DNA of 64,000 nt from Candidatus Latescibacterota bacterium. Lineage in GTDB: Bacteria; Latescibacterota; UBA2968. Below, piece by piece: positions 5,597 to 61,506 of this stretch; the stretch's first letter is position 1, and each line of letters starts with the position of its first letter. The notes beneath the pieces are model-generated. The model did no database searches, was not told where the DNA came from, and saw nothing but the letters and a program-made list of their open reading frames with translations. The stretch is from positions 3,552,001 through 3,616,000 of the forward strand of contig OZ241986.1 of assembly GCA_965204375.1 (NCBI GenBank), written 5' to 3'. A program made the position numbers and the translations under genes.

Positions 5597-7063
5597 ATGC
5601 CAGATAAACGCCCCAACATCCTCTACATCATGACCGACGACCATGGAACCGGCGCCCTGAGTTGCTACGGCAGCCAGATCAACCACACCCCCAACATGGA
5701 CCGCATTGCCCACGGAGGAATGCGTCTGGACAATTGTTACGTCACCTACTCCCTGTGCTCGCCCAGTCGCGCCTCCATCTTAACAGGAAAATACGCACAT
5801 CTCCATGGACAAACATCAATCGGTGGAAATATCTTCGACGGCACACAACAAACATTCCCCCGTCTATTACAGGACGCGGGATATCAAACAGCAATCATCG
5901 GGAAATGGCACCTCCACAGCATACCAACTGGCTCTGATCACTACAGCGTCATGTGGGGACAAGGCTCTTATTTTGATCCCAAATTTATCGAACCCGGCGA
6001 ACATGGTCCCGTATGGAAAGAAAGCCGGGGATATTCGACAGACCTGGTAACCGACAAATGCCTGGACTGGCTCAAAGAACGAAACACCGAACAACCCTTT
6101 ATGCTCTTATGCCATTTCAAATCCCCCCATTACAACTGGGAACCGGACGAAAAACACAAAACCATGTACCAGGATGAAACAATCCCCGAACCAGAGACAT
6201 TTGACCACAATTTTGGAGACAGCCCGGTACCTCCCGAAGCATTGCAAGTCAAGCTCGAAACCGTCCATGAACAATGGAATATCACCCATTGGGACGCTAT
6301 GCCCGAAGGATTATCCATGCAGCAGCAAAAACACAGAAACTACCAGTACTTCATCAAAGACTACCTCCGCTGTGTGGCATCGGTAGATGATAACATCGGG
6401 CGGCTCCTCGACTACCTCGACGAACAAAACCTCGTCGAAAGCACAGTTGTAGTATATACCTCAGACAACGGGATGTTCCAGGGCGAACACGGCTGGGTCG
6501 ATAAAAAAATGATGTACGAAGAAAGCCTACGAGTTCCCTTCTTAATCCGATACCCCAGAGAAATAGCAGCGGGAACCCACACAAATGACATGGTCATCAA
6601 CCTCGACTATGCACCGACCTTCTTAGAATACGCCGGGCAACCCATCCCCGCAGACATCCAGGGAAAAAGCCTGGTACCCCTCCTGCGAGAACAAACGCCA
6701 GAAGATTGGCGAACCGCCTTTTACTACCAGCACTTCGACATCCACCCCGACGGCGAACTGGCAAACTGCGGTGTACGCACCAAAAATTTCAAACTAATCT
6801 GGTACAACCACAACTACGACCACTACCAGCTCTTCGACACCCAAAAAGACCCCAGCGAAACCCGGGATGTATCCGAAGACTCCGAATACGCCTCAACAGT
6901 ATCCGAAATGAAAGCCTTGCTGCGGGCAGAACGCGAAAAAGCGGGCCTGACAGACGAAATAGAACAACAAATATTTAACAGCGATAACATACCTCAAACG
7001 CGCAAGCAGATGAACGCGTTATTGCAAACGATAGATGCCAACACCGCAAAGGAAAAACAATGA
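5597..7063 (+). CDS. Sulfatase (Cys-type, formylglycine-dependent)
   Basis: RPNILYIMTDD, CSPSRASILTG, GKWHL, SDNG, YEESLRVP. Confidence 0.93.
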   Translation: MPDKRPNILYIMTDDHGTGALSCYGSQINHTPNMDRIAHGGMRLDNCYVTYSLCSPSRASILTGKYAHLHGQTSIGGNIFDGTQQTFPRLLQDAGYQTAIIGKWHLHSIPTGSDHYSVMWGQGSYFDPKFIEPGEHGPVWKESRGYSTDLVTDKCLDWLKERNTEQPFMLLCHFKSPHYNWEPDEKHKTMYQDETIPEPETFDHNFGDSPVPPEALQVKLETVHEQWNITHWDAMPEGLSMQQQKHRNYQYFIKDYLRCVASVDDNIGRLLDYLDEQNLVESTVVVYTSDNGMFQGEHGWVDKKMMYEESLRVPFLIRYPREIAAGTHTNDMVINLDYAPTFLEYAGQPIPADIQGKSLVPLLREQTPEDWRTAFYYQHFDIHPDGELANCGVRTKNFKLIWYNHNYDHYQLFDTQKDPSETRDVSEDSEYASTVSEMKALLRAEREKAGLTDEIEQQIFNSDNIPQTRKQMNALLQTIDANTAKEKQ

Positions 7064-9048
7064 AAAATGCAAAACTCCGCTACAGACAGGTACACCTGGA
7101 CTTTCACACCTCTGAACACTGTCCGAATGTCGGGGGCAAATTTGACGAAGACCAGTTCATCGGCGCCCTGAAAAAAGGACATGTCAATTCCATAACCATC
7201 TTTGCACAATGTCATCACGGCTGGTGTTATTACCCCACAAACACGGATATGAGGCATCCCAACCTGCAAACCGACCTCGTCGGACGCATGCTCGCCGCAG
7301 CCAAAAAAGCCGACATCAACATGCCCGTCTATATCACCGTACAATGGCAGGAAAAAGCTGCCCGCGAACATCCCGAATGGCGCGTCAGGCGACCCGATGG
7401 GGGCTATGTGGGACGGCCAACCATGCATCCCCATACCCCTCTGCCACACGGCGGATGGTATCGCCTGTGTTGCAATACGCCCTATCTGGAAGCGAGTGTC
7501 TTGCCCGTATTGACAGAAGTAATGGACATGTACAACCCCTCTGGCATCTTCCTGGACATCACCGGGGAAGAAATTTGCACCTGTGATTGGTGTATCGCCA
7601 GCATGCACGAAAAAGGGCTTGACCCCAATAACGCTGGAGATCGAGTTATCCACTCACAAGAAGTGTACAAAGACTATCTAACCAAAACCACCGACATCAT
7701 CTGGAGCCGCAATCCCGACGCCACAATTTATCACAACGGAAGCGACAAAAAGGGTAGGCACGACCTCTACCCCTACTGGTCGCACCACGAAATCGAATCC
7801 CTGCCAACCGGCATGTGGGGATACAACCACTTCCCGACAAACGCGCGCTACTTCACAAACCTGCCCGACTGCAACGCAATCGCACAAACGGGCAAATTCC
7901 ATCGCATGTGGGGCGAATTTGGCGGCTTCAAAAATCCAGTCGCACTGGAATACGAAGTGGGACAAATCATCTCATTAAATTGCCGCTGTATGGTCGGCGA
8001 TCAACTCCATCCAGAAGGAGAGATGGACGAAGAAACCTATCGCATCATAGGCGAAGCGTACAAACGCGTTGAAGAACGCGAACCATGGCTGGAAGGTGCC
8101 GAACACGTGGTAGATGTAGCGATCCTCGCACCCTCGGGCGTACACAAAGACAGAGACCTGGAAGACAGCGAAGTCGGCGCCGGCCTCATGCTCATGGAAA
8201 ACCACATCCCGTTCTTAATGCTCGACGAAACAATGGATCTATCCCCCTACCAGTTGCTGATCTTACCAGACAGCGTGCGCGTGGACGACGCCCTAAAAGC
8301 GAAAATCGATGCCTTTCTGGCAAATGGCGGCAAGCTCCTGTCATCTGGCGAAAGCGGCCTGGACCCTGCGGGAAAAGATTTTGCGTATGACATCGGCGCC
8401 AAATATACTGGCCCCTCGCCCAATGACATAGAATATGTAGTCGTCGAAGACGCCATCGCCGCAAATTTGGTACGCACCCCATTCCTCGTCTATGAATCTG
8501 GCGTAACGACAAAAGTGACAGACGGCGAAATCCTCGCAGCCGCGTGGAAACCGTATTTTAACCGCACACACGGAAAATTTTGCTCCCACCGAAACACCCC
8601 TTATGAAGGCGACGCGGGTTGGCCCTCTGTCATACGCAAAGGCAACGTCATACACATCGCACAACCCATCTTCAGAGTCTATGACGACCAGGGAATGCAA
8701 TTGCACCGCGACCTGGTAAAAAACTGTATCGACCTGCTCTACGACGACCCCTTATTGCAGGTCGGCCTGCCATCGTGTGGCCGCGTAAATCTAACCCGCC
8801 AACCCCAGGAAGGAAATCGGCTAATCCTGCATCTCATGTACGCCAACCCCATCAAACGGGGCGACACAAATGTAATTGAAGACATTATTCCACTATACGA
8901 TATTCCGGTCTCATTAAAAGCGGACCGCGACATATCTCGCGTGTACCTCGCCCCCGAAAATGAGGACATTGAATTTGCAGTATCGAACGGGCGCGTGTCA
9001 TTTACCGTGCCCAAGGTCGAAATGAATCAGATTGTAGTGATTGAATAA
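7060..9048 (+). CDS. Putative glycoside hydrolase (GHL6/alpha-fucosidase-like N-terminus, beta-galactosidase trimerization domain)
   Basis: RQVHLDFHTSE, FAQCHHGWCYYPT, HEIESLP, KFH..WGEFGG, GDQLHP; start overlaps the sulfatase stop (ATGA). Confidence 0.75.
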   Translation: MKNAKLRYRQVHLDFHTSEHCPNVGGKFDEDQFIGALKKGHVNSITIFAQCHHGWCYYPTNTDMRHPNLQTDLVGRMLAAAKKADINMPVYITVQWQEKAAREHPEWRVRRPDGGYVGRPTMHPHTPLPHGGWYRLCCNTPYLEASVLPVLTEVMDMYNPSGIFLDITGEEICTCDWCIASMHEKGLDPNNAGDRVIHSQEVYKDYLTKTTDIIWSRNPDATIYHNGSDKKGRHDLYPYWSHHEIESLPTGMWGYNHFPTNARYFTNLPDCNAIAQTGKFHRMWGEFGGFKNPVALEYEVGQIISLNCRCMVGDQLHPEGEMDEETYRIIGEAYKRVEEREPWLEGAEHVVDVAILAPSGVHKDRDLEDSEVGAGLMLMENHIPFLMLDETMDLSPYQLLILPDSVRVDDALKAKIDAFLANGGKLLSSGESGLDPAGKDFAYDIGAKYTGPSPNDIEYVVVEDAIAANLVRTPFLVYESGVTTKVTDGEILAAAWKPYFNRTHGKFCSHRNTPYEGDAGWPSVIRKGNVIHIAQPIFRVYDDQGMQLHRDLVKNCIDLLYDDPLLQVGLPSCGRVNLTRQPQEGNRLILHLMYANPIKRGDTNVIEDIIPLYDIPVSLKADRDISRVYLAPENEDIEFAVSNGRVSFTVPKVEMNQIVVIE

Positions 9049-9063
9049 AGAAAGGAGTCTCTC

Positions 9064-9975
9064 ATGGCAGAAACAAAAAAAATCGTCCGATCGGAGCCCT
9101 TTGTAATCAACAAAAACATGGGCAGTCCGATGGCGATATCCACCCGAGATCTAACGCCCAAAAATGCGGATGGTCTCCCGGTAGTCTTGCCCACAGAAAA
9201 ACAAAAATACGACTTTGATCGCAATGGGTGGCTCTTGATCCCCGGCGTACTCTCAAAAGACGAATGCGACGAAATGCGGACCTTTGCCGAGCGACTGGCC
9301 AAAGACCCCGAAAGCATACCCGAACACGAACGCTGCCCACTTGGGGGACCATTGCAAAAATTAGCCGACCACCCCGTTATCGTCGGATTCATGAACGAAT
9401 TTGTAGCATATCCTCCTCTCGCCAACGACGAGCGATACGGATTCAGACTGGAAACATCCCACCTGTTTTACCGCGATGCTGAAACACCCGGAAAATTTAG
9501 CCCGCATAACGGCAATGGCCTGTTTCGCATGCCCTGGGACTCGCACTTTTACCGGTGCATCCCCGGCAAAGCCTGGAGCGGACTAACGCGCGTGGTATGG
9601 GAATTTAACCCCGTCAAAAAAGGCCAGGGCAGCACATTATTTGTAACCGGCAGCCACAAAGCCGCTTATCCAGCACCCGAAACCGTCCGCGCCCCCGAAT
9701 CAACCATGTGGGAAACCTACGGTTGTCCCCCCGGATCGCTGTTGTTCTTCACCGAAGCAATCACGCACAGCGCACATCCCTGGACCAATACCGAAAATAA
9801 TCGCCTCGCCGTATTCAACCTCTACAACATCGTCGCGAGCCGATGGCATTCGTGGTTGCCCCCCGAAAAACTCATCGAATCCATGCCCCCCCTCAGACAA
9901 ACGCTCTTCAGCGAACCGTACAACGAAAAAGTGGATACATTCTTCCCGCGCACAACGGCGTATATGGACGGATAA
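9064..9975 (+). CDS. PhyH-like Fe(II)/2OG enzyme with HxG in place of HxD
   Basis: EKQKYDFDRNGW, PHNG, TLFVTGSHK, PGSLLFFTEAITHS. Confidence 0.7.
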   Translation: MAETKKIVRSEPFVINKNMGSPMAISTRDLTPKNADGLPVVLPTEKQKYDFDRNGWLLIPGVLSKDECDEMRTFAERLAKDPESIPEHERCPLGGPLQKLADHPVIVGFMNEFVAYPPLANDERYGFRLETSHLFYRDAETPGKFSPHNGNGLFRMPWDSHFYRCIPGKAWSGLTRVVWEFNPVKKGQGSTLFVTGSHKAAYPAPETVRAPESTMWETYGCPPGSLLFFTEAITHSAHPWTNTENNRLAVFNLYNIVASRWHSWLPPEKLIESMPPLRQTLFSEPYNEKVDTFFPRTTAYMDG

Positions 9976-9992
9976 CTGAAAAGGAGACCAAC

Positions 9993-10892
9993 ATGGACAG
10001 CAATGGAACCATAACACCTTATATCATCGACAAAAATCTGGGCAGTCCCATGGACGACTACTCAGATGTATTGCCAAAGAAAAATGGCGACGGATTAGAC
10101 ATCATCGAACCGACCGCAGAGCAGAAATACCGGTTCGACAAAGACGGATGGTTATTGGTCCCAGGTGTATTGAGCGAACAGGACATCAAAGAAATGCGGG
10201 AATTTTGTATCCAGCTACATCTCGATCCCCAATCGCTCCCCGAACACGAGCGCACCCCGCTGGCAGGACCCACACAAAAATTGATAGACCATCCTCTGGT
10301 AGTCGGCATGATGAATGAATTCATGGCCAATCCCCGCTTATCAAGCCCCAATTGTTATGGATTCAGCCTGGCCGCCAATGGACTCTGGTATAGAACCGCA
10401 CCCACCCGGCGCAATGAAGGCAAAAGAGAAGCCCGTCAGTTTAGCCCACACAACGGCAATGGACTATATCGCCTGCCCGGCGACGCGCACTATTACAACG
10501 CCTTTCCCGGCAAAGCCAACAGCGCGCATACCCGCGTGATCTGGGAATTGAACCCCGTCAAACACAAACAGGGCGGCACACTCCTCGTAACGGGCAGCCA
10601 CAAAGCTGTGTACACTGCGCCCGACGAAATTCAAGACCCCGACTCCAGCATCTGGACGACCTATTCATGTCCGGCAGGCTCGGTCCTATTCTTTGCAGAA
10701 GCGACAACACACAGCGCGTATCCGTGGATCAACGAAGAAAACGATCGCATTGCCATTGCCAACCTCTACAACTTCGTGGATGGCGGTCACGCCGGACTAC
10801 TGCGACCAGATCCCCACATACTGAAATCCATGCCCCCAATTCGCCAGACCCTGTTCAGAGAGCGATATGCCGGTCAAAATGTCGTCAGGTGA
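9993..10892 (+). CDS. PhyH-like Fe(II)/2OG enzyme (HxG), tandem paralog of 9064-9975
   Basis: ATG at 9993 after AAGGAG; shares KNLGSPM, EQKY.FD..GW, FSPHNGNGL, VTGSHKA, SMPP.RQTLF with the upstream gene. Confidence 0.72.
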   Translation: MDSNGTITPYIIDKNLGSPMDDYSDVLPKKNGDGLDIIEPTAEQKYRFDKDGWLLVPGVLSEQDIKEMREFCIQLHLDPQSLPEHERTPLAGPTQKLIDHPLVVGMMNEFMANPRLSSPNCYGFSLAANGLWYRTAPTRRNEGKREARQFSPHNGNGLYRLPGDAHYYNAFPGKANSAHTRVIWELNPVKHKQGGTLLVTGSHKAVYTAPDEIQDPDSSIWTTYSCPAGSVLFFAEATTHSAYPWINEENDRIAIANLYNFVDGGHAGLLRPDPHILKSMPPIRQTLFRERYAGQNVVR

Positions 10893-10898
10893 GACCCC

Positions 10899-12287
10899 AT
10901 GGACCAGAACCGACCAAATATCCTGTTCATAATGACAGATGAGCAGCGTTTTGACCACCTGGGAAGTGTAAACTCCGCGGTAAAAACACCGCACCTGGAC
11001 GCCCTCGCCAATGACGGCGTTCTATTCAGCCGGGCATATACGCCCAATCCATCGTGCGTACCTGCGCGAGCGGGAATCTTCACCGGAAAATATCCACACC
11101 AGTGCGCGGCACCCACCTTTATCACCTATCTGCCAGCGCACGAAAAGACGTTCATGAGTTATTTACAAGAAGCGGGATATTATACCGCAGTAATAGGAAA
11201 ACAGCACTTTGGCGAATCGAAAATTAAACGGGGTTATAACCATGAAGACATTATAGACAGCCACAGCCCCGCGCCTCAGAATCCAAACCGCAACTCCTAT
11301 AATCAGTGGCTATGGAACTCCGGATTCAAGCACCGCAGCGAACTAATACAGGGAAATCCCGACATCAGAAGATATTCGGAATGGAAGGCAAACCCAAAAT
11401 ACCACGTCGATCACTACGTGGGCGACCGGGGCCGCGAATGGATCGAAAGCGGCATGCCCGAGGATCGCCCCTGGTTTTGCTGGATCTCATTTCCAGGTCC
11501 CCACGGACCAATCGACTGTGGCAATCTTCCCCAGGCCGACCTGTACGACCCGGCTGAAATTGACATGCCAGAAACAAATTTCGAAATGCTGGCACAAAAA
11601 CCTCCGCACAACTCATTGCGAGGCGGACCCGAGCGCCAACAGCCTTTTACAAAAAATGAAATCCGCAAACTGCGACACGCTTATTACGCAAACGTAACAC
11701 TCATAGATGAAAAAATTGGTGCAATCGTACAGGCATTAAAAAATAGCGGCACCTATGACAACACCCTCATATTCTTCACCAGCGACCACGGCGACTTCAT
11801 GGGCGACTTCCAGCTCATGGCCAAAGGTCAAAACATAATGGAAGTACTCATGCGCATCCCCTTTATAATCAAGCCCCCAAAAGGTGGCGCACGCGGAAAA
11901 GTGGAATCATCTCTCATCTCCGCAATCGATATTGCAGCCACCAGTTTAACCGTTGCTGGCGCAGAAGTACCCGAACACATGGCCTCACGCGACCTGTCGC
12001 ATTACTGGTCCCATGCAGAAGACCTGGACGACCGGGATGAGTTATACATGGAAGCATCGGGCATTCGGTGTTTGCGCACCCGGCGCTGGAAAATAGGGCA
12101 TTATTGGAACAAACCCTATGGCGAACTCTACGACCTGAAAAACGACCCGTGGGAAAAAGAAAACCTGTGGGACCGCCAGGACATAGCAGAGTTAAAATCC
12201 AAACTACAAAAACGCTTGCTGGATAAACTGATCGAATTGAGCCAGCGGTCTTATATCGCGTGGAATCACGGCGCACCTGAATTATGA
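10899..12287 (+). CDS. Sulfatase
   Basis: RPNILFIMTDEQR, CVPARAGIFTG, GKQH, SDHGD. Confidence 0.9.
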   Translation: MDQNRPNILFIMTDEQRFDHLGSVNSAVKTPHLDALANDGVLFSRAYTPNPSCVPARAGIFTGKYPHQCAAPTFITYLPAHEKTFMSYLQEAGYYTAVIGKQHFGESKIKRGYNHEDIIDSHSPAPQNPNRNSYNQWLWNSGFKHRSELIQGNPDIRRYSEWKANPKYHVDHYVGDRGREWIESGMPEDRPWFCWISFPGPHGPIDCGNLPQADLYDPAEIDMPETNFEMLAQKPPHNSLRGGPERQQPFTKNEIRKLRHAYYANVTLIDEKIGAIVQALKNSGTYDNTLIFFTSDHGDFMGDFQLMAKGQNIMEVLMRIPFIIKPPKGGARGKVESSLISAIDIAATSLTVAGAEVPEHMASRDLSHYWSHAEDLDDRDELYMEASGIRCLRTRRWKIGHYWNKPYGELYDLKNDPWEKENLWDRQDIAELKSKLQKRLLDKLIELSQRSYIAWNHGAPEL

Positions 12288-13318
12288 GGGATCACGGAAT
12301 GAACGGATATCGGATTGGAATTGTAGGATGTGGTGGAATAGCGCATCGGCACATTGCGGGATATCGGGAAGTCGCGCACGACCTGGGAGAAGTCGTCGCA
12401 GGATGTGATATAGACAAAGAGCAACTGAATGGATATTGCGACCAATACGACATACCCAACCGCTTTACAAATGCGGCAGACATGATCGCATCGGGAGAAG
12501 TCGATGTCATCAGCCTGTTAACACCCCCTGCCGTGCGCCATGACGTAATCTTCCCCGCAATTGAAAAAGGCATCCATCTCCTCGTCGAAAAACCATTTGG
12601 CGAAACATTGTGCGATGCGGTATCCTTTGTCGAAGCCGCGGAAAAAGCAGGCGTAACCCTGGCAGTAAACCACCAATTGGGATTCATGGAAGACGTCGTC
12701 GCAATGCGCGACATCATCAATTCGGGTGATATTGGCGACATACGTTATATATCGCACGACGAATTAAAAAACCGGACGCGAGTACGCGGGTGGCGAAGCC
12801 AGGAGCAGCGCCTGGAAATCAGTATCTTTAGCATCCACCTCATCGACCGCATCCGCACATTGGCGGGTAGCCCTCCCCAAAGCGTATCAGCCGTAACGCG
12901 CCATTGGAATCCAGACGTCAAAGGCGAAACCTTTACCAGCTTGACAGTACAATTTGAAAATGGCATCGTCGGCACCATGGTATCCAACTGGCATGGCTTA
13001 ACCCTATCGGAATGTCGATTGCGCGTAGATGCCACAAGAGGATCGATCCTATCCGTCAAAAAAGTCGTACTTGACGACACAGCCACATTGCACATCCATC
13101 CTCTGAATGCAAAAAAGGAAACACGCGAATTTCACCGCGAAGGGGCATTCACACACGCAATGGGTGAAAGTATGAACCACCTGATGGACTCGGCGCGGCG
13201 CGGCACAGAACCCATGCACAGTGGGCGAGGAAATTTATACACCATGCAAATTGTCGATGCGGCCTATCTATCGGCACAACGCGGCGGACAAATGGTAGAA
13301 GTGGAAGAAATAAAATAA
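12284..13318 (+). CDS. Gfo/Idh/MocA family oxidoreductase
   Basis: IGIVGCGGIA..H, LLVEKP, SIHLID. Confidence 0.88.
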   Translation: MRDHGMNGYRIGIVGCGGIAHRHIAGYREVAHDLGEVVAGCDIDKEQLNGYCDQYDIPNRFTNAADMIASGEVDVISLLTPPAVRHDVIFPAIEKGIHLLVEKPFGETLCDAVSFVEAAEKAGVTLAVNHQLGFMEDVVAMRDIINSGDIGDIRYISHDELKNRTRVRGWRSQEQRLEISIFSIHLIDRIRTLAGSPPQSVSAVTRHWNPDVKGETFTSLTVQFENGIVGTMVSNWHGLTLSECRLRVDATRGSILSVKKVVLDDTATLHIHPLNAKKETREFHREGAFTHAMGESMNHLMDSARRGTEPMHSGRGNLYTMQIVDAAYLSAQRGGQMVEVEEIK

Positions 13319-13334
13319 TACTGGAGGAACAGCA

Positions 13335-14135
13335 ATGACCGCAGATTGTCCCACAACCCCTGAAGATATCGCGCAATATCAAAAAAAGGGATTCATCAGC
13401 TATCCCAATTTCTTCTCTCCAGAAGACCTCCGGGAACTGGCAGACGCGCTCGACCACGCCGTAGCAATCAACCGCGCCAGAATCAAAGGCGCAGAAAACG
13501 CGGGACGAGGCAGACCCGAATACGAACTCGTATTTAATCAAATGGTCAACCTCTGGACCGACTATGCAGGCGCGCGAAAAATTGCCCTGAACAAACGCCT
13601 CGCAGAATCCGCTCGCCGACTATCACAAGCCAAACAAATCCGCATCTATCACGACCATGCACTCATAAAACCACCCGGCGTCAAAAGCCGGGAAACCAAC
13701 TGGCACCAGGACTTTCCGTACTGGTCTGGCATGGATCGCCCGGGCGCACTCTCTGCCTGGATCGCAATCGATGATGTCTATGTCGAAAATGGCTGCATGC
13801 ACTTCGTCCCCGGAAGCCACAAATTCGGCAAACAAGAAGGCATAAGCCTGACCACTCAGGGCGAAAGCATCGTCGAAAAAATGAAAGAACGCGGACACAA
13901 AGTCGCCGAACCGGAAACCATAGAACTGCCAGCCGGCGGCGTCACCTTCCACCATGGATGCAACTTCCACTATGCAGGACCCAACCTCAGCGACAAACCC
14001 CGCCGCGCATTCGCCATCATCTACATCCCCGACTACGTCCTCTTCACCGGCAAAAACGACGCAGCGGGCGCGCAAGACGAAATGGAAATCGGCAAACCCT
14101 GGGATCACCCCCTGCATCCCGTAATCGCAGAATAA
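13335..14135 (+). CDS. PhyH-family dioxygenase
   Basis: WHQD, ENGCMHFVPGSH, FHH...HYAGPN.S..PRRA. Confidence 0.9.
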   Translation: MTADCPTTPEDIAQYQKKGFISYPNFFSPEDLRELADALDHAVAINRARIKGAENAGRGRPEYELVFNQMVNLWTDYAGARKIALNKRLAESARRLSQAKQIRIYHDHALIKPPGVKSRETNWHQDFPYWSGMDRPGALSAWIAIDDVYVENGCMHFVPGSHKFGKQEGISLTTQGESIVEKMKERGHKVAEPETIELPAGGVTFHHGCNFHYAGPNLSDKPRRAFAIIYIPDYVLFTGKNDAAGAQDEMEIGKPWDHPLHPVIAE

Positions 14136-48839: not shown

Positions 48840-48920
48840 CCAAATTGAAATGTGATTTTCTATGTTCGTGGGTTTAGCGAAAACGCGATACAAGTCCTTA
48901 TACGGATACTCTCTTCTAAA

Positions 48921-48983
48921 AATGCGGTTGACCAGGCAATGGCCGTACATCTGAAGCCCCAACTGGTCCTAGATGCTTTGGAT
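48921..48983 (+). pseudogene. Possible IS3-family transposase remnant
   Basis: Translates as QAMAVHLKPQLVLDALD, resembling the IS3 rve segment W.M..H...LV.DAL. Confidence 0.3.
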
Positions 48984-49005
48984 TATGATATATCCAATTT
49001 TGTTC

Positions 49006-49233
49006 TTAGCGGAGCTTACTGGCGTAGTCTTTTCTTACACAACGATTGATGAAGCTGTTCAGACCCTCGCCTGCAATAGCCAATCGCTTCATGTGCTCAA
49101 TATTAGCACTACCCGCACTCTGATACGTATAGAGATAGATGGATCCATCACTAAACATCACCGTGATGGAGTCAGATCCTATCTCGTAAGCTACGACTCC
49201 AGAATCCCCGCCTCTGTTTCTATAGCGTTCCAT
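49006..49233 (-). CDS. Small conserved KTSC-like protein (75 aa)
   Basis: MERYRN.GGDSGVVAYEIG.DSI.V.F.DGSIYLY...SAG..NIEHMK.LA.AG.GLNSFI; ATG at 49233 after GAGGA. Confidence 0.7.
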   Translation of the reverse strand: MERYRNRGGDSGVVAYEIGSDSITVMFSDGSIYLYTYQSAGSANIEHMKRLAIAGEGLNSFINRCVRKDYASKLR

Positions 49234-49243
49234 ATATTCATCC

Positions 49244-53847: not shown

Positions 53848-54732
53848 TCAAAAAAACGTATTGACGATTATCATATAACAGGCATTCTGTTTTCTCTTCA
53901 GAGTGTCTGGTAGGAGTGTAGCATTTCGGCTCGTAAACTCCTGGATGCGCTCAGGCTTCACCCCATAGATATTGCGGAGGGTATTAAACAGGCCGATCAG
54001 ATCTGTTTCACTGTTAGTAGCTTTAGCCAACGCGCTCAAATACACATCATCAATATGCGATAATGCCTTTGCTATTCGGGAGCGCGTTTCATTGACAGAC
54101 TGAACATCCGAAAGTCTGGCAGGCGCATCCCAACACGGTGTCACGGATTTGATCTTACGCAACACGGCCAGATGGTGGTCCTCGCGGATAATCGACACTG
54201 TAAAACTACTGGGATAGACGGACAGCCAATTCTCGACAATTTGCTTCTCATAAGACCTTCTGAAATCGTCCAGAATGACCAGACCACCAATCTTGATCTG
54301 ATCATAAACCTGGTAAAGGCAGGCCTCCCGACCTCGCAAGGTATAGACAGGCGGACCATCAATAATCACGCAATCCATCTCTTCCTGCCAAAACATCCCA
54401 TCTTCATAAGTCAAAAATTCCGCATCTCCATAAGATTCAAGCGTAATCGGACGATATTTGATCGATAGATTGCGCTTATCCAAAAACTTCTGTATCAAAT
54501 CCGTAGTTTCTCTAAAATTTCGACAATCACCTTCCACAGACAAAACTTGCGCTTCAGGAAACGCCATCGCCAGACGGATAGAACTCGGACCACTTCCAAA
54601 TTCGAGAATTCTTTCTACTGTGGACATCTGAAGAAGCAAGGTCTCTATTCTCCCGAACACTGTCTCACCAATGCTCCAGCCTGTGTCCAGATTAAGCTGA
54701 TCAGGCATTTCAAAATCTGAAATTTTATGCAT
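53848..54732 (-). CDS. Class I SAM-dependent methyltransferase (Methyltransf_24-like)
   Basis: ILEFGSG.SS, IIDGPP, GGLVILDD. Confidence 0.8.
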   Translation of the reverse strand: MHKISDFEMPDQLNLDTGWSIGETVFGRIETLLLQMSTVERILEFGSGPSSIRLAMAFPEAQVLSVEGDCRNFRETTDLIQKFLDKRNLSIKYRPITLESYGDAEFLTYEDGMFWQEEMDCVIIDGPPVYTLRGREACLYQVYDQIKIGGLVILDDFRRSYEKQIVENWLSVYPSSFTVSIIREDHHLAVLRKIKSVTPCWDAPARLSDVQSVNETRSRIAKALSHIDDVYLSALAKATNSETDLIGLFNTLRNIYGVKPERIQEFTSRNATLLPDTLKRKQNACYMIIVNTFF

Positions 54733-54747
54733 TTCTCACTTCTCTGC

Positions 54748-56178
54748 CTATGATGTCACCTCCAGATCATAACGTCGCTGCAACAAAGACGCATCGACTT
54801 CCGCAATCTCCATACACATCTCCATCGCCAGTTCATAGCGATAGCGCGTCTGCTCACAAGCAACCGGATTGGGATACATCGGATCACCCGTCGTCGTCCG
54901 TGCCTCCCAAAGACATCCGCCACCACACAAGTTGCGCGCCCAGCACGTTTTGCACTCAGATCGATTATTCACATTGAACTGCGCGTCAAAATACTGCTGT
55001 TTTTCGCGATCAATACCCGCAAACACATCACCCATCTTAAACTCAGGTGCATCGGCCAAACTCGAGCAAAAATAAATTGATCCGTCTGCTGCAACAGCCA
55101 AATACTGCTTGCCGCCCAAGCATCCATGACAGGATTTTTGGCGCGTCAAAAGTTTTTCGATCCTCGGATCAAACTCTTCACTCTCTTCACCATTTAAAAT
55201 GGCTTTGAGCGCATGTCGGCTCCGCTTGTAAATTTGCTGCTTCAGAACGGGTATATGTTCTTCCCGAATAGCATAAGGCGCATCCGGTGAAACAACAGCC
55301 GGACCAACAAGTGCGTTTTCAGTACCCAGGGAACGCAACTCATCGGCAATCTGATCCTCGTCCATATCATAAGCTGTCATAACAGCCTGCAAATACACGC
55401 GCTCAGGTGCCTCAGCAGTCAGCTTTTTCACATTTTTTGCCACAACATCATAAGTCCCAGAACCATTGTGAAACTTGCGAATGCGATCCTGTGTTTTACG
55501 TCCGCCATCCAGGCTAACCTTAATCTGAAACTTTTCATCAACCAAAAACTGCTTCATCTCGTCGGTCAACAGCGTGCCATTGGTCACAATGCCAAATCCC
55601 ACCTGCACACCTAATCGCGCTCCCAGGGACCTGGCAAACGGCACCAGCTTGCATAATAGCGGAAAGTTCAAAAGCGGCTCTCCGCCAAAAAAATCAATCT
55701 GGCACCGTCCGAACACCTGAGCCTCATTAACAATCCAGCTTATCGCTTGTTCGGCAACATCGGGTTGCATCAGCATGGCCTTACCGCCGTAATCTCCACC
55801 GTGGGCAAAGCAATAAGCGCATTGAATATTGCACGTATGGGAAACGTGCAGCGACACCTGCAAACGATCTGTCTGCGATACCCCACAGGCTGCCACCCCT
55901 TCTGCGATCGGCACATTGGATACCACGGGTAGAGCACCATCCGAAATCAAACCTACCCGAGACAATTCCTCAATGGCTTCGACAACTTCTTCTGCCTCGT
56001 ATTGACCGACCAGCATCTGGACAACCTGTGAAGCAGACAAGCTCTCACAACATTCTAAAATTGATTTGAAAAGGGGGTCCAGTTCAAAAAACAGCCCCGT
56101 CTTCACCTGATAGACAATCGGCTGTTTGTGCTCTTCGGTTTGAAAAAGATGCATGTCACATTTTTGAATACACAGCAT
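54748..56178 (-). CDS. Radical SAM/SPASM peptide maturase B (CteB/QhpD-like, N-terminal RRE)
   Basis: CNIQCAYC, FFGGEPLLN, TNGTLL, SLDG; SPASM C.GG...C...CKTCWARNLCGGGC...C. Confidence 0.9.
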   Translation of the reverse strand: MLCIQKCDMHLFQTEEHKQPIVYQVKTGLFFELDPLFKSILECCESLSASQVVQMLVGQYEAEEVVEAIEELSRVGLISDGALPVVSNVPIAEGVAACGVSQTDRLQVSLHVSHTCNIQCAYCFAHGGDYGGKAMLMQPDVAEQAISWIVNEAQVFGRCQIDFFGGEPLLNFPLLCKLVPFARSLGARLGVQVGFGIVTNGTLLTDEMKQFLVDEKFQIKVSLDGGRKTQDRIRKFHNGSGTYDVVAKNVKKLTAEAPERVYLQAVMTAYDMDEDQIADELRSLGTENALVGPAVVSPDAPYAIREEHIPVLKQQIYKRSRHALKAILNGEESEEFDPRIEKLLTRQKSCHGCLGGKQYLAVAADGSIYFCSSLADAPEFKMGDVFAGIDREKQQYFDAQFNVNNRSECKTCWARNLCGGGCLWEARTTTGDPMYPNPVACEQTRYRYELAMEMCMEIAEVDASLLQRRYDLEVTS

Positions 56179-56202
56179 GCCTTGTACTCCTGAGAATCGA
56201 AA

Positions 56203-56391
56203 TCATCTATCCTGATCATCAGCCTGATCAAGATCGTCCCAATCGTCATCATCGGGAAAGGGCAGGGGGGGAACAGCTATCCAACCGGGCTCACAGATCA
56301 TTTCAAAACTATCCGCAGTCTGATACATAAGAATGCCACCTTCTTGACCTATCGTTCCATTGATCAAAGTCAACTTGCGTCGCGTTGCCAT
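56203..56391 (-). CDS. Putative RiPP precursor peptide B (62 aa)
   Basis: RBS GGGAGGG then ATG at 56391; MATRRKLTLING leader; FEMICEPGW; Pro-rich then Asp-rich tail; ends 24 bp before rSAM B. Confidence 0.78.
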   Translation of the reverse strand: MATRRKLTLINGTIGQEGGILMYQTADSFEMICEPGWIAVPPLPFPDDDDWDDLDQADDQDR

Positions 56392-56446
56392 ATTACCCTC
56401 CCTCAATACAAAAATCTAAAATGTGGTCACGATCTGTCCTTAATAC

Positions 56447-56463
56447 TGCAAGATCCGTGCCTG
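56447..56463 (-). promoter_or_regulatory. Sigma54 (RpoN) -24/-12 promoter
   Basis: Minus strand CAGGCACGGATCTTGCA versus consensus TGGCACG-N4-TTGCW. Confidence 0.8.
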
Positions 56464-56478
56464 AAATCGTCCCAACAC

Positions 56479-56510
56479 AAAAAAAAGCACTTGAAAATTC
56501 TCAAGTGCTT
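56479..56510 (-). terminator. Terminator of the kinase-activator gene
   Basis: Minus strand AAGCACTTGA-N6-TCAAGTGCTT followed by a T tract. Confidence 0.7.
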
Positions 56511-56573
56511 AAAAAATAAAGAGATAAAATTTAAAAATTATTTGTGATACAAATGCGACGATCAGACATAAGT

Positions 56574-56692
56574 GTAAACACCAGGATACACTTACAACCG
56601 CTTATTTAAATAAAATATCCATAAATTATTGACTTATATAAACATACTACAAATCGTAAACACCAGGATACACTGTAAACGCCAGGATACAC
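56574..56692. promoter_or_regulatory. Three 18-bp repeats, putative enhancer (UAS) sites
   Basis: GTAAACACCAGGATACAC at 56574 and 56656; GTAAACGCCAGGATACAC at 56675; TGTAAA-N6-GATACA pseudo-palindrome. Confidence 0.7.
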
Positions 56693-56703
56693 CTGTTCAA
56701 CGT

Positions 56704-59700
56704 CTATATCAATCCCAAACGATTGATCTTTTTATGCAGGCCAACGCGCGTCATTCCCAATTCTCTGGCGGCCTGGGTAATATTGCCCTCGTATTTCTCG
56801 AGCGTATCTCGAATCAATTGTTTTTCATACTCCTGAACACGATCTTGTAAATACCCCTGAAATTCGACAGAGGCATCTGACACTGTATGCCCGATAGATT
56901 CTGAAAACAAATCAGGCGTAATATCACCATCTTCTTTTGCCAATGCCACCGCAAGCCGAATCTTATTTTCCAACTCGCGCACATTACCCGACCATCTGTG
57001 ACTTGTGAGCACCTTAATCGCACCTAATGTCAGCTCTCCAACCGACTTGTTTGCCTCTTCTTTTGCCCGAATGAGCAGATGTTCAGCCAATAACGGCACA
57101 TCTTCAAGGTGTTCTCGCAAAGGCGGCATATCGATCTGAATCCCATGCAACCGATAATACAAATCTTCGCGAAAAGAGCCTTTTTCAACTTCTTTTTTTA
57201 AGTCTCGATTGGTCGCTGCAATAATGCGTACATCCACTTTGCGATCCTCTGTTTCTCCCACACGCCGAATCTCTCCTTCTTGCAACACCCGCAACAAACT
57301 CTTTTGCAACTCTGGCGAGGCATCGGCGATTTCATCCAAAAGAACCGTGCCCCCATCAGCAACTTCAAAAATCCCTTTATGATCTTCACTCGCGCCAGTA
57401 AAAGCACCTTTTTTGTGACCAAACAATTCACTCTGCAACAACTCTGGTGAAAGTGCAGCACAATTTTGCGACAAAAATCGCTGGTCTTTGCGTGTACTAT
57501 TGTAGTGTATGGCACGCGCAGCCAATTCCTTGCCCGTACCTGTTTCGCCCTGCACAAGCACGGGAATATCGCTCTTTGCAGCAGTTTCTATAAGCCGGTA
57601 GATCGCCTGCATCGCATCACTCTGGCCAACCAGATCATCAAGTCGGTACCGCCTTTTCACCTCCTGCTGCCAATATTGTGCTTTCTCCTCCAATTGTTCG
57701 TACATCCTCGCATTGACCAGTGCCATCCCCACCAGATTCGCAAATGCCTGCAAAAACGTCTGATCTTCTTCAGAAAATACATTGTCTATGCCGCGATGAT
57801 CCACATATAGCGCACCGATAACACCTTCCTTAACATGAAATAGGGGTACGCATAATACAGACCGAATGTTGTAGTCCATCACACTCTGGTACTGATTGAG
57901 CCTTCCATCTGTCTGGGCATCAAAGCTCAAAACGGGTTCATTGGTCTCAATAACGCGGCGAATAATACCTCCACTCAATTCTTCTGCATCATCTACCTCT
58001 AAATTGTGGTAGCGCACAGCATCGACCACAAAGCCTTTTGGGGTCTCATTTTTAATCGCAACAACCACGCGTTCTGCTGGATAGATAGTCAACAAATTAC
58101 CCAAAGTTCGATCCAATAGCACCTTGACATCGCGCTCTGTTGTCAATTCCCTGCTCACATCGTAAAGCAAGCGTAAGCGATCAACAGATAACGTATCGAC
58201 CGAAATTTCAGAACTGGGAGCGACATCCTCGTTGCGAGAAGATTCATCCAATTGATCTAATAACACCTGTGTTTTCTCCAGAAAATAGGACATTTCCATT
58301 TCTTCAAACGCCTGTTTTGCCGCTTCGAGATGTGCCTGCGCTTTTGGTACATCATCGCGCTCGAGATAAAATTCCCCTGCCATCAACAGCGCACGCGCCC
58401 AGTGATCGCCTTTGGATTCTCTGCGACATTCAATAGCCTGCTCAAACGCCTCTTCAGCCTCAGCAATCCGCCCTGCTTGAGCGAAAGCAACGCCGATACC
58501 ACAATACACCAGGGGCAATATGCCCTTGTACATCCCCGATGTTTGTTGCGTACCTTCACTGACTCTTTCTGTCCATTCAAGTGCTACATCTGTATCTCCC
58601 ATTCTCGCCGCAGCCGTTGCCGCTATCGCATAAGCGCGATAGACATAATCTTTTCGAGGTGTTTCCAAAAATCGCTCTGAAGAAATCTCGGCATATTCCA
58701 ATGCTTCGGCAAAATCACCGCGTTCCAGTGCCAATTCTCCCAAGTAGAGGAAATTCATTGCCTCCCAGTACAAAAGTCCTCGCTTCTGCCACTCACCAAT
58801 GACCTCATAACAAACCGATTCCGCACGATTGAAATCACCCAAATAAAAATACACTCTTTGAAGTGAATTAAGTGCCCAAATGCGATGGTGTTCAAGTCCA
58901 AGTTGTAGAGATGTTCTTACAGTTGCTTTTAGGTGTGCTTTAGCTGTCCCAAAGCGAAATCCCACTAATGCAATCAGACCTTCTCGCCCTTGTATAATAG
59001 CCTTGTTTTGAGCTCTTCCCAGAGTAGCATATTTCTCTATTTCCCGACGCATATACGCAATCGCTTCTTCGTGCCGTCCAGACACATCACATAAATGAGC
59101 TAAACTGCTCAATGCCTGAACCTCACCTTCGAGATCACCGAGTTCGCGATAAAGTCGCAATGCCTCCAGCATATATTCTTCTGCTATTTCTCGATGTTGA
59201 AGTACGCTGTGAATAACCCCTTTGCGATTCAAAATATGTGCCTTCAAATCGTTTCGATCAGAGGGCAATAACCCCTTTGCCTCGTTTAAAAGTTCCAGTG
59301 CTTTATTGTACTGACCGCAATTGCGCAGCACATCTGCATAATCGCACAAAAAGTCGATAGTATCTGCTTGTGATTCAAAGGCGTCATCCGCTGACCAGCC
59401 TCGCACAGCCTCAAACCGTCTCAATGCTTGGCGATACGCCTGTGTCTCCAATGCTTTCTTGCCCGCCAGACACATATATTTCATCGCCTTATCTCGTTCT
59501 TCTGCCGCCGCAAAATGATCCGCCAATTCTTCCGCCAATTCTTCCGCATCCTCCGACTCGTCCAGAACATTGCCAATTTCTCGATGCAACAGACGCCGCC
59601 GAGCATTTTGCAGGCGGTCATAAATTGCACGCCGACACAACTCCTGCGAAAATCGATAGCGGTCTTCATCCTCTACACAAGCATCCAAAAGCCCTTCTGC

Positions 59701-61506
59701 AATCAAGTCGTCCAGTACATCCAATAGCTCCAACTCATCACCGCGCCAAACCTCAGCCAATAATTCGAAAGAAAAATCACTCAAAAAAACACAGGCGTAT
59801 TCCAGCACCCGGCGCTGCACATCAGGCAGAGTAGCTATGCGCCTGTGTAAAACCTCTGAAAAATCATCGGACAACAAAGATTCGGGAAATTCTCCCCACT
59901 GCCAATCGCCAGACACATTCTGCCGAACCACATTGGCCTGCACCAGTGTTCTCACAGCCTCCACGACAAACAGGGGTTGTCCACCCGTTTCCCTGAACAG
60001 GGATTGCAAGGCATCCACCGGTATGGATCGCTCCCCCAACATCGACGCCGCTAAATATCCCGACGCTTCTTGTGATAGATTCTTCAACTGAATATGAGTC
60101 GCACCAGCAAATTCATTGCTATGTATAAATTTTTCAATTTCCTCTGAAATCGGTTCCAAATTAGACCATCGGCAAGTCAGGCATAACAAAAACGGACACG
60201 GTTCTGGATCGCGCAACACATACTTCAAAAATTCCAATGACAATTCATCAAGCCATTGAATATCTTCCAGGCAAAACACAATGGGCTTTTGCTTTCGCAT
60301 ACGCTTTAACAACTGCAACCAGCGTTCCATAACAGAAAACTTATCCGTCTCTACCGGATCGGGCATCCGCCCCATCAAATTCGTCATCCCTTGAAAAGCA
60401 TCAACCAATGCACCGTATATTTGTCCACCCTCTTCCCACCCTGCACTTTTCAAACACAGAAAATTATAGACCCGAGCATCGCCCAATAGTTCTTCAACCA
60501 ATCTCGATTTACCCACCCCTGACTCACCAGAGATCAAAACCACGCGCTGCTCACCAACCAGTACATCCTTTAACATCGCACGCAACGTCTTCATCTCGGA
60601 TTCGCGCCCGACAAATTGCGGCCGCATCACTTTCACAGGCACATCGCGCTGCTCATCATCCGGTGACATAAACCCCGATTGTAAGGCACGCACCAGTTCC
60701 TCTGCCGACTGATAGCGATCAACAGACTCCTTTGCCAGCAACTTTAACACAACTTGTTGCGTCTGTTCGGGAACAGCGATATTGACCTGGCCTATTGGTG
60801 GCGGTGACTCTCGAATATGCTTCAGAATAACAGATATTGGATTTTGTCCAGAAAATGGCGGTGCGCCCGTAAGCATCTCGTATAAAATCACACCCAATGA
60901 ATACAAATCTGACCGATGATCCACCCACAACCCCTTACCCTGCTCTGGCGACATATATTCTGCCGTACCAATCGTCGCGCCCGTCTGCGTAATGGAAACG
61001 CTATGCAGATGCCTGAGTTTGGCCAGCCCCAGATCCAGAATCGTGGTCTCAATCCCCTCTTCTGTTTCCAATACCATAATATTGGACGGTTTGAGATCGC
61101 GATGCACTGCACCCTGCGCGTGGATGTACGCCAATCCCTCGGCAATTTGTTGCACAAAAGTAAAAAAGTACGAAGCCCGAAATCGTCCCAACAGTGCAGG
61201 ATCGGCAATTATTTTTTCCAATGTCTTCCCGGGCAAATATTCCATTGTAAAATAAGGACGCCCCTCGGCAAAGCCCCAAGCATACGTGCGTACCAAGCGC
61301 GGGTGCTGAAGTCTGCTCAACACCTGAAACTCTCTGTGAAAACGGCGATGCACAGCCTGCTCATCCATCATTTCATTCAAAATTTTGAGCACGCAAACCC
61401 GGTCTTGCTCCAGGTCCAAAACCCGATAGACCTCGCCCATGCCCCCGGATCCCAGGTGCGCCTGGATCTGGTATCTTTTGTCGAGAATGGTGCCGATTTC
61501 AAACAT
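56704..61506 (-). CDS. Ser/Thr kinase - STAND ATPase - TPR - GAF - sigma54 activator - HTH fusion (about 1600 aa)
   Basis: GSGGMGEVY, HRDLKPSN, DLG, YMSPE; GESGVGKS/LEDIQW; TPRs; GAF; GETGTGKE, GAFTGA, LLDEI, GNVRELEN; Fis-type HTH. Likely start ATG at 61506. Confidence 0.92.
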   Translation of the reverse strand: MFEIGTILDKRYQIQAHLGSGGMGEVYRVLDLEQDRVCVLKILNEMMDEQAVHRRFHREFQVLSRLQHPRLVRTYAWGFAEGRPYFTMEYLPGKTLEKIIADPALLGRFRASYFFTFVQQIAEGLAYIHAQGAVHRDLKPSNIMVLETEEGIETTILDLGLAKLRHLHSVSITQTGATIGTAEYMSPEQGKGLWVDHRSDLYSLGVILYEMLTGAPPFSGQNPISVILKHIRESPPPIGQVNIAVPEQTQQVVLKLLAKESVDRYQSAEELVRALQSGFMSPDDEQRDVPVKVMRPQFVGRESEMKTLRAMLKDVLVGEQRVVLISGESGVGKSRLVEELLGDARVYNFLCLKSAGWEEGGQIYGALVDAFQGMTNLMGRMPDPVETDKFSVMERWLQLLKRMRKQKPIVFCLEDIQWLDELSLEFLKYVLRDPEPCPFLLCLTCRWSNLEPISEEIEKFIHSNEFAGATHIQLKNLSQEASGYLAASMLGERSIPVDALQSLFRETGGQPLFVVEAVRTLVQANVVRQNVSGDWQWGEFPESLLSDDFSEVLHRRIATLPDVQRRVLEYACVFLSDFSFELLAEVWRGDELELLDVLDDLIAEGLLDACVEDEDRYRFSQELCRRAIYDRLQNARRRLLHREIGNVLDESEDAEELAEELADHFAAAEERDKAMKYMCLAGKKALETQAYRQALRRFEAVRGWSADDAFESQADTIDFLCDYADVLRNCGQYNKALELLNEAKGLLPSDRNDLKAHILNRKGVIHSVLQHREIAEEYMLEALRLYRELGDLEGEVQALSSLAHLCDVSGRHEEAIAYMRREIEKYATLGRAQNKAIIQGREGLIALVGFRFGTAKAHLKATVRTSLQLGLEHHRIWALNSLQRVYFYLGDFNRAESVCYEVIGEWQKRGLLYWEAMNFLYLGELALERGDFAEALEYAEISSERFLETPRKDYVYRAYAIAATAAARMGDTDVALEWTERVSEGTQQTSGMYKGILPLVYCGIGVAFAQAGRIAEAEEAFEQAIECRRESKGDHWARALLMAGEFYLERDDVPKAQAHLEAAKQAFEEMEMSYFLEKTQVLLDQLDESSRNEDVAPSSEISVDTLSVDRLRLLYDVSRELTTERDVKVLLDRTLGNLLTIYPAERVVVAIKNETPKGFVVDAVRYHNLEVDDAEELSGGIIRRVIETNEPVLSFDAQTDGRLNQYQSVMDYNIRSVLCVPLFHVKEGVIGALYVDHRGIDNVFSEEDQTFLQAFANLVGMALVNARMYEQLEEKAQYWQQEVKRRYRLDDLVGQSDAMQAIYRLIETAAKSDIPVLVQGETGTGKELAARAIHYNSTRKDQRFLSQNCAALSPELLQSELFGHKKGAFTGASEDHKGIFEVADGGTVLLDEIADASPELQKSLLRVLQEGEIRRVGETEDRKVDVRIIAATNRDLKKEVEKGSFREDLYYRLHGIQIDMPPLREHLEDVPLLAEHLLIRAKEEANKSVGELTLGAIKVLTSHRWSGNVRELENKIRLAVALAKEDGDITPDLFSESIGHTVSDASVEFQGYLQDRVQEYEKQLIRDTLEKYEGNITQAARELGMTRVGLHKKINRLGLI

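Follow-up and report, generated by a model that had tools for sequence, protein, structure and literature searches.

Enzymes of the radical S-adenosylmethionine (rSAM) class that carry a full SPASM domain and an N-terminus resembling a RiPP recognition element (RRE; RiPP, a peptide made on the ribosome and modified after translation), encoded beside a small cysteine-containing precursor, are known from the SCIFF/ranthipeptide systems (CteB, PapB/freyrasin, NxxcB) and from QhpD. We consider here a candidate locus of this kind in a 64,000-nucleotide stretch of DNA (the window; contig OZ241986.1 of assembly GCA_965204375.1, positions 3,552,001 to 3,616,000) from an uncultured marine Latescibacterota bacterium, a locus whose close relatives occur in sponge and coral libraries. 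The genes, all on the minus strand at 53848..61506 of the window, form a 7.7-kb module in which a 62-residue peptide and its presumed rSAM/SPASM maturase lie directly downstream of a 1600-residue sigma54 activator with kinase, STAND NTPase, tetratricopeptide (TPR) and GAF modules.

The sections of the review PMC8326336 on which we draw describe QhpD as forming Cys-Asp and Cys-Glu thioethers, freyrasin as carrying six bridges of the Cys-Asp kind, and NxxcA as having just one, a Cys-Asn thioether bridge; the acid-rich substrate found here fits the Cys-Asp and Cys-Glu thioethers. In contrast to SCIFF, however, the precursor is unrelated, has one cysteine rather than six, combines a conserved follower with a hypervariable loop of fixed length, and is found in one genus only. 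Automatic annotation has so far listed only 'ranthipeptide' clusters in sponge-associated Latescibacterota, with their function called unknown (PMC12993501).

On the regulatory side, the GAF-AAA+-helix-turn-helix (HTH_8) core with its GAFTGA motif, the AT-rich IHF-like spacer, and dyads lying 110-240 nt 5' of a -24/-12 promoter recall enhancer-binding proteins (EBPs) such as NifA and NtrC. The activator differs from these in its approximately 1100 extra N-terminal residues (kinase, STAND, TPRs), in having a peptide operon as its target, and in the terminator between enhancer and promoter. The pairing of AAA_16 with a MalT-like TPR presumably likens it to MalT and PknK. TIGR03903, which describes a kinase-STAND protein named for its RiPP (TOMM) association, matches activator residues 389-834. 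Unlike STAND regulators and TIGR03903 proteins, the activator has a sigma54 AAA+ output in place of a LuxR HTH or a cyclase, and joins two ATPase classes in one chain. Kinase-EBP fusions were reportedly noted in a myxobacterial genome paper. EBPs and -24/-12 promoters occur inside myxobacterial biosynthetic clusters, where polyketide and non-ribosomal peptide genes are under sigma54 control; the regulators in the portion of PMC7910581 that treats them are, however, of response-regulator type and not kinase-STAND fusions. In streptococcal Rgg/SHP operons an adjoining cytoplasmic repeat-domain sensor switches on an rSAM-RiPP operon, a likeness tempered by their other regulator family, sigma70 promoters and separate pheromone peptide, to judge from excerpts of PMC13361665 and PMC9389541; for the present locus no pheromone gene is known.

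Our literature search, made outside supplements, found no description of this activator architecture, peptide family or circuit: the parts are of known kinds, and their combination and the peptide family are new. We propose, with a probability of roughly three in four, that the locus is a self-contained sigma54 switch cassette of one genus of uncultured Latescibacterota, which would drive production of a modified peptide. What sequence and comparison show are the parts and the order in which they lie, the way they are inherited together, the match of HTH to enhancer, and how selection has acted along the peptide. Such a cassette would be a compact model of a STAND (NLR-like; NLR, NOD-like receptor) sensor wired to transcription through sigma54, with sensor, enhancer, insulating terminator, promoter and output in one module.

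Architecture and inheritance of the cassette

The features of the locus are as follows.

56704..61506, minus strand: activator open reading frame (ORF), 1600 residues, kinase–STAND NTPase–TPR–GAF–sigma54 AAA+–HTH (Pfam matches above cut-offs)
60700..61473, minus strand: Hanks-type kinase domain, residues 12-269 (Pkinase, 156.4 bits against a Pfam cut-off of 31.7; invariant catalytic residues)
60199..60618, minus strand: STAND-type P-loop NTPase, residues 297-436 (AAA_16, 81.6 bits against 32.6)
58303..58983, minus strand: TPR sensor region (Pfam; TPR_MalT, residues 842-988, 47.7 bits against 45; TPR_12, residues 1000-1068, 73.3 against 30.1)
58807..59106, minus strand: most variable stretch of the activator, residues 801-900 (pairwise identity)
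57718..58134, minus strand: GAF domain, residues 1125-1263 (GAF, residues 1128-1263, 55.7 bits against 22.4; GAF_2, 48.9 bits)
57133..57633, minus strand: sigma54-interaction AAA+ domain, residues 1292-1458 (Sigma54_activat, PF00158, 248.6 bits against 20.2), with GAFTGA at 57391-57408
56719..56832, minus strand: HTH_8 domain, residues 1559-1596 (45.2 bits against 22), with recognition helix TRVGLHKKINRL ('H type')
56656..56693, minus strand: putative enhancer sites 1 and 2, a pair of 19-nt repeats that abut (repeat/dyad search)
56622..56635, minus strand: AT-rich spacer with an IHF-like motif, here with one mismatch (read from the sequence)
56574..56592, minus strand: putative enhancer site 3, the best dyad, AAGTGTA-N10-TACACTT (repeat/dyad search)
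56477..56510, minus strand: hairpin and T-run resembling an intrinsic terminator, between enhancer and promoter (hairpin scan)
56447..56462, minus strand: predicted sigma54 -24/-12 promoter AGGCACGGATCTTGCA (consensus scan and conservation)
56203..56391, minus strand: precursor peptide, 62 residues (118 homologues)
54748..56178, minus strand: rSAM/SPASM maturase, 476 residues, RRE-like N-terminus (Pfam and curated models)
53848..54732, minus strand: ORF294, a probable class I SAM methyltransferase of 294 residues, accessory (sub-threshold Methyltransf_24 matches)

When the species genomes of GTDB were searched with the alignment of the peptide, 21 loci came out, every one in a metagenome-assembled genome of Latescibacterota and with the rSAM gene next downstream; once 14 more loci had been added, the comparison covered 37. 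The peptide is present in 16 of 168 Latescibacterota genomes, all of one genus (16 of its 21 genomes), at two to three cassettes per positive genome, and in none of the 147 other genomes of the phylum. The activator (N-terminal 1100 residues, 77-88% identity) and the rSAM enzyme (88-95%) are found in the same 16 genomes, and both are absent from the same five genomes of the genus, which are 97-99% complete. Upstream DNA is present for 36 loci; in every one of them the end of the activator ORF lies 296-328 nt 5' of the peptide ATG, and the layout of enhancer, hairpin and -24/-12 promoter is common to all of them. Where the downstream DNA is long enough, in 33 loci, the rSAM gene directly follows the peptide every time; a script identified 32 of these and L044 was read by eye, the other four being cut by contig ends.

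The activator itself begins at the ATG at 61506, with an N-terminus, MFEIGTILD, that matches the conserved MFE.GTILD of its homologues. In an alignment of 77 homologues the kinase residues K41, H135-R136-D137, N142 and D158 are all invariant, the DFG-like motif of the window's protein reading DLG instead of DFG. Equally invariant are G327, G330, V331, G332 and K333 of the STAND Walker A motif, the Walker A motif of the sigma54 AAA+ domain except E1321, and G1367, F1369, T1370 and G1371 of GAFTGA, A1368 and A1372 being conserved at 90% or more. Because catalytic, Walker A and GAFTGA residues are invariant or nearly so, all modules of the activator look functional. A P-loop NTPase followed by a repeat domain is the architecture of a STAND sensor, nSTAND3 itself scoring below its cut-off (24.2 against 27.2). 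As expected of a sigma54 EBP, an AAA+ domain with GAFTGA appears together with an HTH and upstream dyads, an rpoN gene and a predicted -24/-12 promoter. The genome has a single rpoN (one Sigma54_DBD gene, 193.7 bits) and about 20 other sigma54 activators. No curated equivalog model is reached by the activator: assignment to NifA (TIGR01817, 389.1 against a cut-off of 528.85) and to the TOMM kinase/cyclase fusion (TIGR03903, 304.3 against 705.75) was rejected in each case, and the 25 best-scoring of the 38 Pfam families listed include no cyclase domain. A paralogue encoded in this genome shares 82% identity with the protein, and mean pairwise identity in the family falls to 0.58-0.68 over residues 801-900 against 0.8-0.9 in the rest of the protein.

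These results bear on an earlier note on this DNA, which had claimed an activator with an intact GAFTGA motif (it lies at residues 1367-1372) followed by a 62-residue peptide (a conserved gene), an rSAM/SPASM enzyme (both domains score above their Pfam cut-offs) and a methyltransferase. The last is present as an ORF in the place described, its identity being only probable, with every score below cut-off. The survey of homologous activators that the note had asked for found the activator upstream in 36 of 36 peptide loci with upstream DNA and the maturase downstream in all 33 with enough DNA on that side. Its circuit from activator to peptide gains support from synteny, co-occurrence, the presence of rpoN and the matching of HTH and repeats, and its description of the sensor as 'NLR-like' is borne out for the architecture alone, the succession of STAND NTPase and TPR.

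The regulatory region and helix–enhancer matching

The 312 nt that separate the stop of the activator gene (56704) from the ATG of the peptide (56391) were also said to contain repeats, a terminator and a sigma54 promoter, and all three can be located there. The elements follow one another as two abutting repeats, an AT-rich stretch, a third repeat, the hairpin and T-run, AGGCACGGATCTTGCA, a leader of about 55 nt and a ribosome-binding site (GGGAGGG at about 56396-56402). The sequence GTGTATCCTGGYGTTTAC occurs three times 3' of the activator (56574-91, 56656-73 and 56675-92), with 0.05 occurrences expected and none of 100 shuffles reaching three. Each 19-nt repeat is an internal dyad, TGTA-N10-TACA, and the first begins 11 nt past the activator stop codon; in the 6.34-Mb genome the dyad sites are unique to the locus, bar one match elsewhere with two mismatches. 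The AT-rich spacer carries WATCARNNNNTTR in 21 of the 36 loci, a putative IHF-like motif. The hairpin at 56485-56510 comprises 11 pairs and is followed by the T-run, a pattern detected in 31 of the 36 loci with a column conservation of 0.89. The predicted promoter AGGCACGGATCTTGCA has one mismatch to the sigma54 consensus, and GG-N10-GC is found in 36 of 36 loci, 58-80 nt 5' of the peptide ATG. It is the best-conserved intergenic element (0.92, in a region with 0.75-0.92 majority per column; for comparison, synonymous sites of the peptide gene differ by about 0.4-0.5). Since the -12 C lies at 56448, transcription is predicted to start near 56436.

The recognition helix of the activator and the repeats that follow its gene change together. 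The Q helix (..GLQKK..) is accompanied by GTGCAT..ATGCAC repeats in 17 of 17 loci, the H helix (..GLHKK..) by GTGTAT/GTGTAA..TACAC repeats in 12 of 12, and the Y helix (..LY(K/R)K..) by TGTATCA or TGTAAAC types in seven loci, five of them assigned by pattern and two by eye. The half-sites are TGCA or TGTA, and the change from T to C in the left arm is mirrored by A to G in the right arm at all three sites, as should be the case for a dimer-binding site under selection. Q-type repeats also contain TGTAT. When the C-terminal 110 residues are left out of the tree, the H-type protein of the window groups as sister of the Q-type protein of locus L048 (SH-aLRT 100%), and the helix/enhancer pair would therefore have switched at least twice, or have moved by recombination. 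Most genomes hold one cassette of each helix type, and distinct helix/enhancer types would insulate the cassettes of a genome from one another. The Q, H and Y variants found in nature offer ready-made helix/enhancer pairs, both matched and mismatched.

The genome carries a second cassette (L014, G000:C1:3046000-3065900, 6069..13927), which has the 82% identical activator, a Q-type enhancer and a perfect promoter, TGGCACGGATCTTGCA, with a peptide and an rSAM enzyme that are 83% and 94% identical to those of the window.

The peptide, its probable maturase and the expected product

The 118 homologues of the peptide among cluster representatives have no Pfam family, and the only named one is a 'hypothetical protein'. 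A profile search for distant relatives among 1.84 billion representatives gave 14 matches at E<=0.001, which belong to the same family or are frameshifted copies, together with one chance repeat protein. By these comparisons the peptide is a new family. An N-terminal part (residues 1-30), with the conserved pattern MATRRKLTLINGTID.EG.I..Y...NSFE, is followed by Cys33 (56293-56295), a loop of residues 34-39 (56275-56292) and the follower VPPLPFPDDDDWDDLDQ. The arrangement of cysteine, loop and [VI]Pxx[PS]FP occurs in 118 of 118 family members, and the loop is exactly six residues long (C-x6-VP) in 117, with 82 distinct loop sequences. The spacer before the cysteine has two residues in 63 members and three in 53. 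A single cysteine is present in 101 of the 118, and [VI]Pxx[PS]FP is followed by an acidic run, with Trp in 94. Along 23 genes the ratio of nonsynonymous to synonymous change (pN/pS) is 0.20 for residues 2-12, 0 for the cysteine, 0.93 for the loop, 0.16 for VPPLPFP and 0.13 for the acidic run. Judged by this pattern, the gene is a coding one, its scaffold held under constraint and its loop free or diversifying. A fixed scaffold with a six-residue variable loop makes the new precursor family a natural display format for a ring cross-linked by an rSAM enzyme.

A double-glycine leader was considered and rejected: GG, GS or GA precedes the cysteine in 49 of 118 members, and C39-peptidase ORFs are unlinked. 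The genome has three ORFs with C39-peptidase domains, possible peptide exporters (G000:C1:251539, 4024613 and 5829167), none near either cassette. The follower, with PPLPFP and the acid-Trp run DDDDWDDF (56203-56272), presumably resembles eukaryotic proline-rich ligands and acidic-Trp short linear motifs, and this likeness may be relevant given the occurrence of locus relatives in sponges and corals.

In the maturase, Radical_SAM (54 bits against 29.5) and SPASM (23.6 against 21.5) both exceed their Pfam cut-offs, with a CX3CX2C motif reading CNIQCAYC and the SPASM motif CX2CX5CX3C reading CKTCWARNLCGGGC. Its N-terminus matches PqqD weakly (residues 22-77, 17.5 against 23.4 bits, E 0.0054), and its best solved relative is CteB (5wgg; residues 21-452, E 1e-61). 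Among curated models, those for the SCIFF maturase, QhpD, the nif11 rSAM enzyme and PapB score best, all below their cut-offs. Assignment to SCIFF (TIGR03974, 263.8 against 425; one cysteine in the precursor, not six in about 45 residues) and to QhpD (TIGR03906, 250.9 against 453) was rejected, and a third model scores 230.6 against 340. Maturases of the genus cassettes are 88-95% identical, and the nearest relatives outside the genus 43-49%.

The invariant cysteine, conserved Asp run and fixed spacing give only indirect support for chemistry of the ranthipeptide type. Because spacing is constant C-terminal to the cysteine and varies N-terminal to it, a thioether would be expected toward the follower. 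Our tentative preference is for one thioether from Cys33 to a follower Asp, closing a ring of about 15 residues around the loop, an assignment to which we give somewhat less than an even chance.

ORF294 has no Pfam match at E 0.01 in the window's own copy. Three of six orthologues match Methyltransf_24 over the full profile (15.3-20.7 bits against 26.3, E 0.0008-0.037), and a language-model score of 0.96 marks the protein as a look-alike of Methyltransf_24 clusters; its single-sequence fold (pLDDT 33.7) is unusable as a model. The protein is probably a methyltransferase of the Methyltransf_24/TylF-like kind.

Proposed mode of action, rival readings and reach of the module

Activation, the signal for it, the thioether together with the acceptor residue, and what becomes of the product are all inferences. 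The cytoplasmic 1600-residue protein would join sensing modules (kinase, STAND NTPase/TPR and GAF) to a complete EBP, whose HTH dimers would occupy the three dyad sites just beyond its own stop codon. The terminator would block read-through from the activator gene and leave the operon dependent on the -24/-12 promoter alone. On receipt of a signal the AAA+ ring would assemble, a step in which three dimer sites could template one hexamer, and would remodel sigma54-RNA polymerase. The operon would then be expressed, giving the peptide together with the rSAM/SPASM maturase and, in the genomic context of this locus, the probable methyltransferase as well. The RRE-like domain of the maturase would bind the conserved N-terminal part of the peptide, and the product would most likely have a single thioether between Cys33 and a residue of the conserved acidic follower, closing a ring on which the six-residue hypervariable loop is displayed.

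Several observations weigh against this reading. The window-wide scan for terminators is at chance level (four sites, 3.2 expected), and that for promoters is not significant (14 sites with two or fewer mismatches, 10.6 expected); both elements are credible because they are conserved across related loci, and not because of the scans. Only about 100 bp or less separates the HTH from the enhancer, and since one recombination tract could carry both, their co-variation alone is no proof of binding; the independent helix/enhancer switches are few, at least two on the tree. All curated maturase models fall below cut-off, which leaves the chemistry a guess, and the acceptor residue is deduced solely from the constant spacing C-terminal to the cysteine. 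None of the three genomic contexts in which cassettes occur has a conserved protease, exporter or transporter. Several activators of other genomes are split or frameshifted, and two full-length activators of the family (L050 and L051) drive unrelated cargo from the same promoter module.

The split activators are those of L016, L026, L032, L033, L036 and L043, which are interrupted by frameshifts, a stop codon or an insertion, with the peptide and rSAM genes intact; they may reflect decay of the sensor or assembly error.

It is conceivable, and in our view unlikely, that the circuit is autoinducing, with the matured peptide or its precursor acting as ligand of the TPR, or substrate of the kinase, of its own activator, and the loop setting the specificity of feedback. 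If so, the TPR segment at residues 801-900 would read the loop, or the kinase would phosphorylate it, strains would have specific 'pherotypes', much like those known from peptide quorum sensing, and the Q/H/Y pairs would insulate the two to three circuits of a cell; we regard these particulars as a similarly long shot. Were they true, peptide signalling of the RRNPP kind would have been rebuilt on an NLR-like, sigma54-dependent chassis in sponge and coral symbionts. Over 23 loci, loop distance correlates with distance over residues 801-900 (Mantel r 0.44; partial r 0.35 with the whole protein controlled, p<=0.001), the only other 100-residue window with a partial p<0.05 being residues 1301-1400 (partial r 0.13, p 0.019). 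With 47 pairs the signal lies at residues 801-850 (r 0.30, partial 0.22, p 0.002) and leader and tail controls are null at residues 801-900; 16-21 of these pairs, however, are joined only through equal-sized contigs. Removal of same-genome pairs leaves the signal in place (r 0.41, p 0.0002), and like TPR segments go with like loops across HTH clades, L034 (H) and L035 (Q) both having PSG loops. Mantel tests are, however, liberal for related sequences, and in ten phylogenetically independent sister pairs rho is 0.50 (p 0.14) for residues 801-900, 0.61 for the remainder of the protein and 0.18 for the ratio. The link between loop and residues 801-900 is suggestive, though it did not pass the phylogeny-controlled test. 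The mapping from loop to TPR is also loose, the two cassettes of this genome share nearly identical loops (EPGWIA and EPGWVT), two activators, L050 and L051, have no peptide downstream, and no exporter or importer is linked to the cassettes. A table in the review PMC8326336, in the part used here, includes SCIFF-derived ranthipeptides as quorum-sensing factors, a precedent that favours autoinduction. Gene conversion within genomes was rejected as the source of the loop–TPR correlation, with same-genome and other pairs alike in loop (0.72 and 0.70) and TPR (0.34 and 0.32). A correlation of loop with the kinase domain, r 0.36 with 17 loci, was gone with 23 (r 0.13-0.15). Prediction of a complex between TPR residues 690-1100 (77-row alignment) and the peptide (41-row alignment) scored 0.01 against a mark of 0.32, gave no answer and weighs neither way.

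A defence switch would put the same parts to another use: STAND/TPR would sense an invader protein in the manner of Avs, the output would be a harmful or protective modified peptide, and an arms race would vary the loop. The STAND NTPase and TPR architecture, the hypervariable peptide segment, the several diverged copies per genome and a ThsB-like TIR gene elsewhere in the window all agree with it. The cassettes, however, have conserved places in the chromosome, next to housekeeping genes such as those for pyruvate dehydrogenase E1 beta and a glycosyltransferase, rather than in variable islands, and the peptide has no toxin-like feature. No link of the genes to known defence systems is established, as no search of the PADLOC library was made. 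Sigma54 transcriptional output is, moreover, slow for abortive defence, and we consider the defence reading quite improbable. The gene order could also be a fossil, the activator regulating something else and the peptide operon being independently driven. The roughly 20 other sigma54 activators of the genome and a promoter scan that by itself stays at chance level leave room for such an arrangement, which would nevertheless have to account for an identical layout in 36 of 36 loci, an enhancer sequence unique in the genome and the match between HTH and enhancer; even L050 and L051 retain enhancer and promoter right after the activator. We judge a fossil order very improbable indeed.

For the sigma54 switch cassette that we prefer, L050 and L051 widen the range of outputs. 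Both keep the dyads, hairpin and -24/-12 promoter; the cargo of L050 (5311..9001) is a secreted dockerin-LRR protein and a WD40 protein, and that of L051 (5284..8654) a DUF218 membrane protein and a TPR protein. Because these two activators drive other cargo, the module is, on the evidence of gene content, a portable switch and not strictly a RiPP regulator.

The activator, peptide and rSAM gene are the only genes shared by all three conserved genomic contexts. ORF294 is found in 12 loci (11 in one context cluster, and L044) and is absent from the second context. In six loci the rSAM gene is followed by a 331-residue sensor-less EBP, with AAA+ and HTH only, and a PHP-UvrD helicase; this layout, which is that of L014, hints at a two-step sigma54 cascade.

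Metatranscriptome contigs that are 80-99% like the rSAM gene, ORF294 and the 3' end of the activator gene come from three libraries of two studies (X21, coral; X22 and X23, sponge); being contigs, they are silent on strand, start and level, and carry-over of DNA is possible. The segment 56424-56647 is without cover in both sponge libraries, and missing cover proves nothing.

Directly after ORF294 lies an IS1380-family transposase (52380-53738, 387 bits against 180), which is not at this position in the related loci compared. Elsewhere in the window, an rSAM gene of 585 residues stands beside a response regulator with an AraC HTH, with a patatin-like phospholipase nearby (45804-48616 and 49244-50965); the genes at 45804-50965 are probably those that the earlier note called 'RiPP locus A'. 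The ThsB-like TIR protein (PF08937, E 3e-10; 33785-34210) is at the edge of a glycosyltransferase-rich stretch of low GC content (0.38-0.44) that covers about 36-48 kb of the window.

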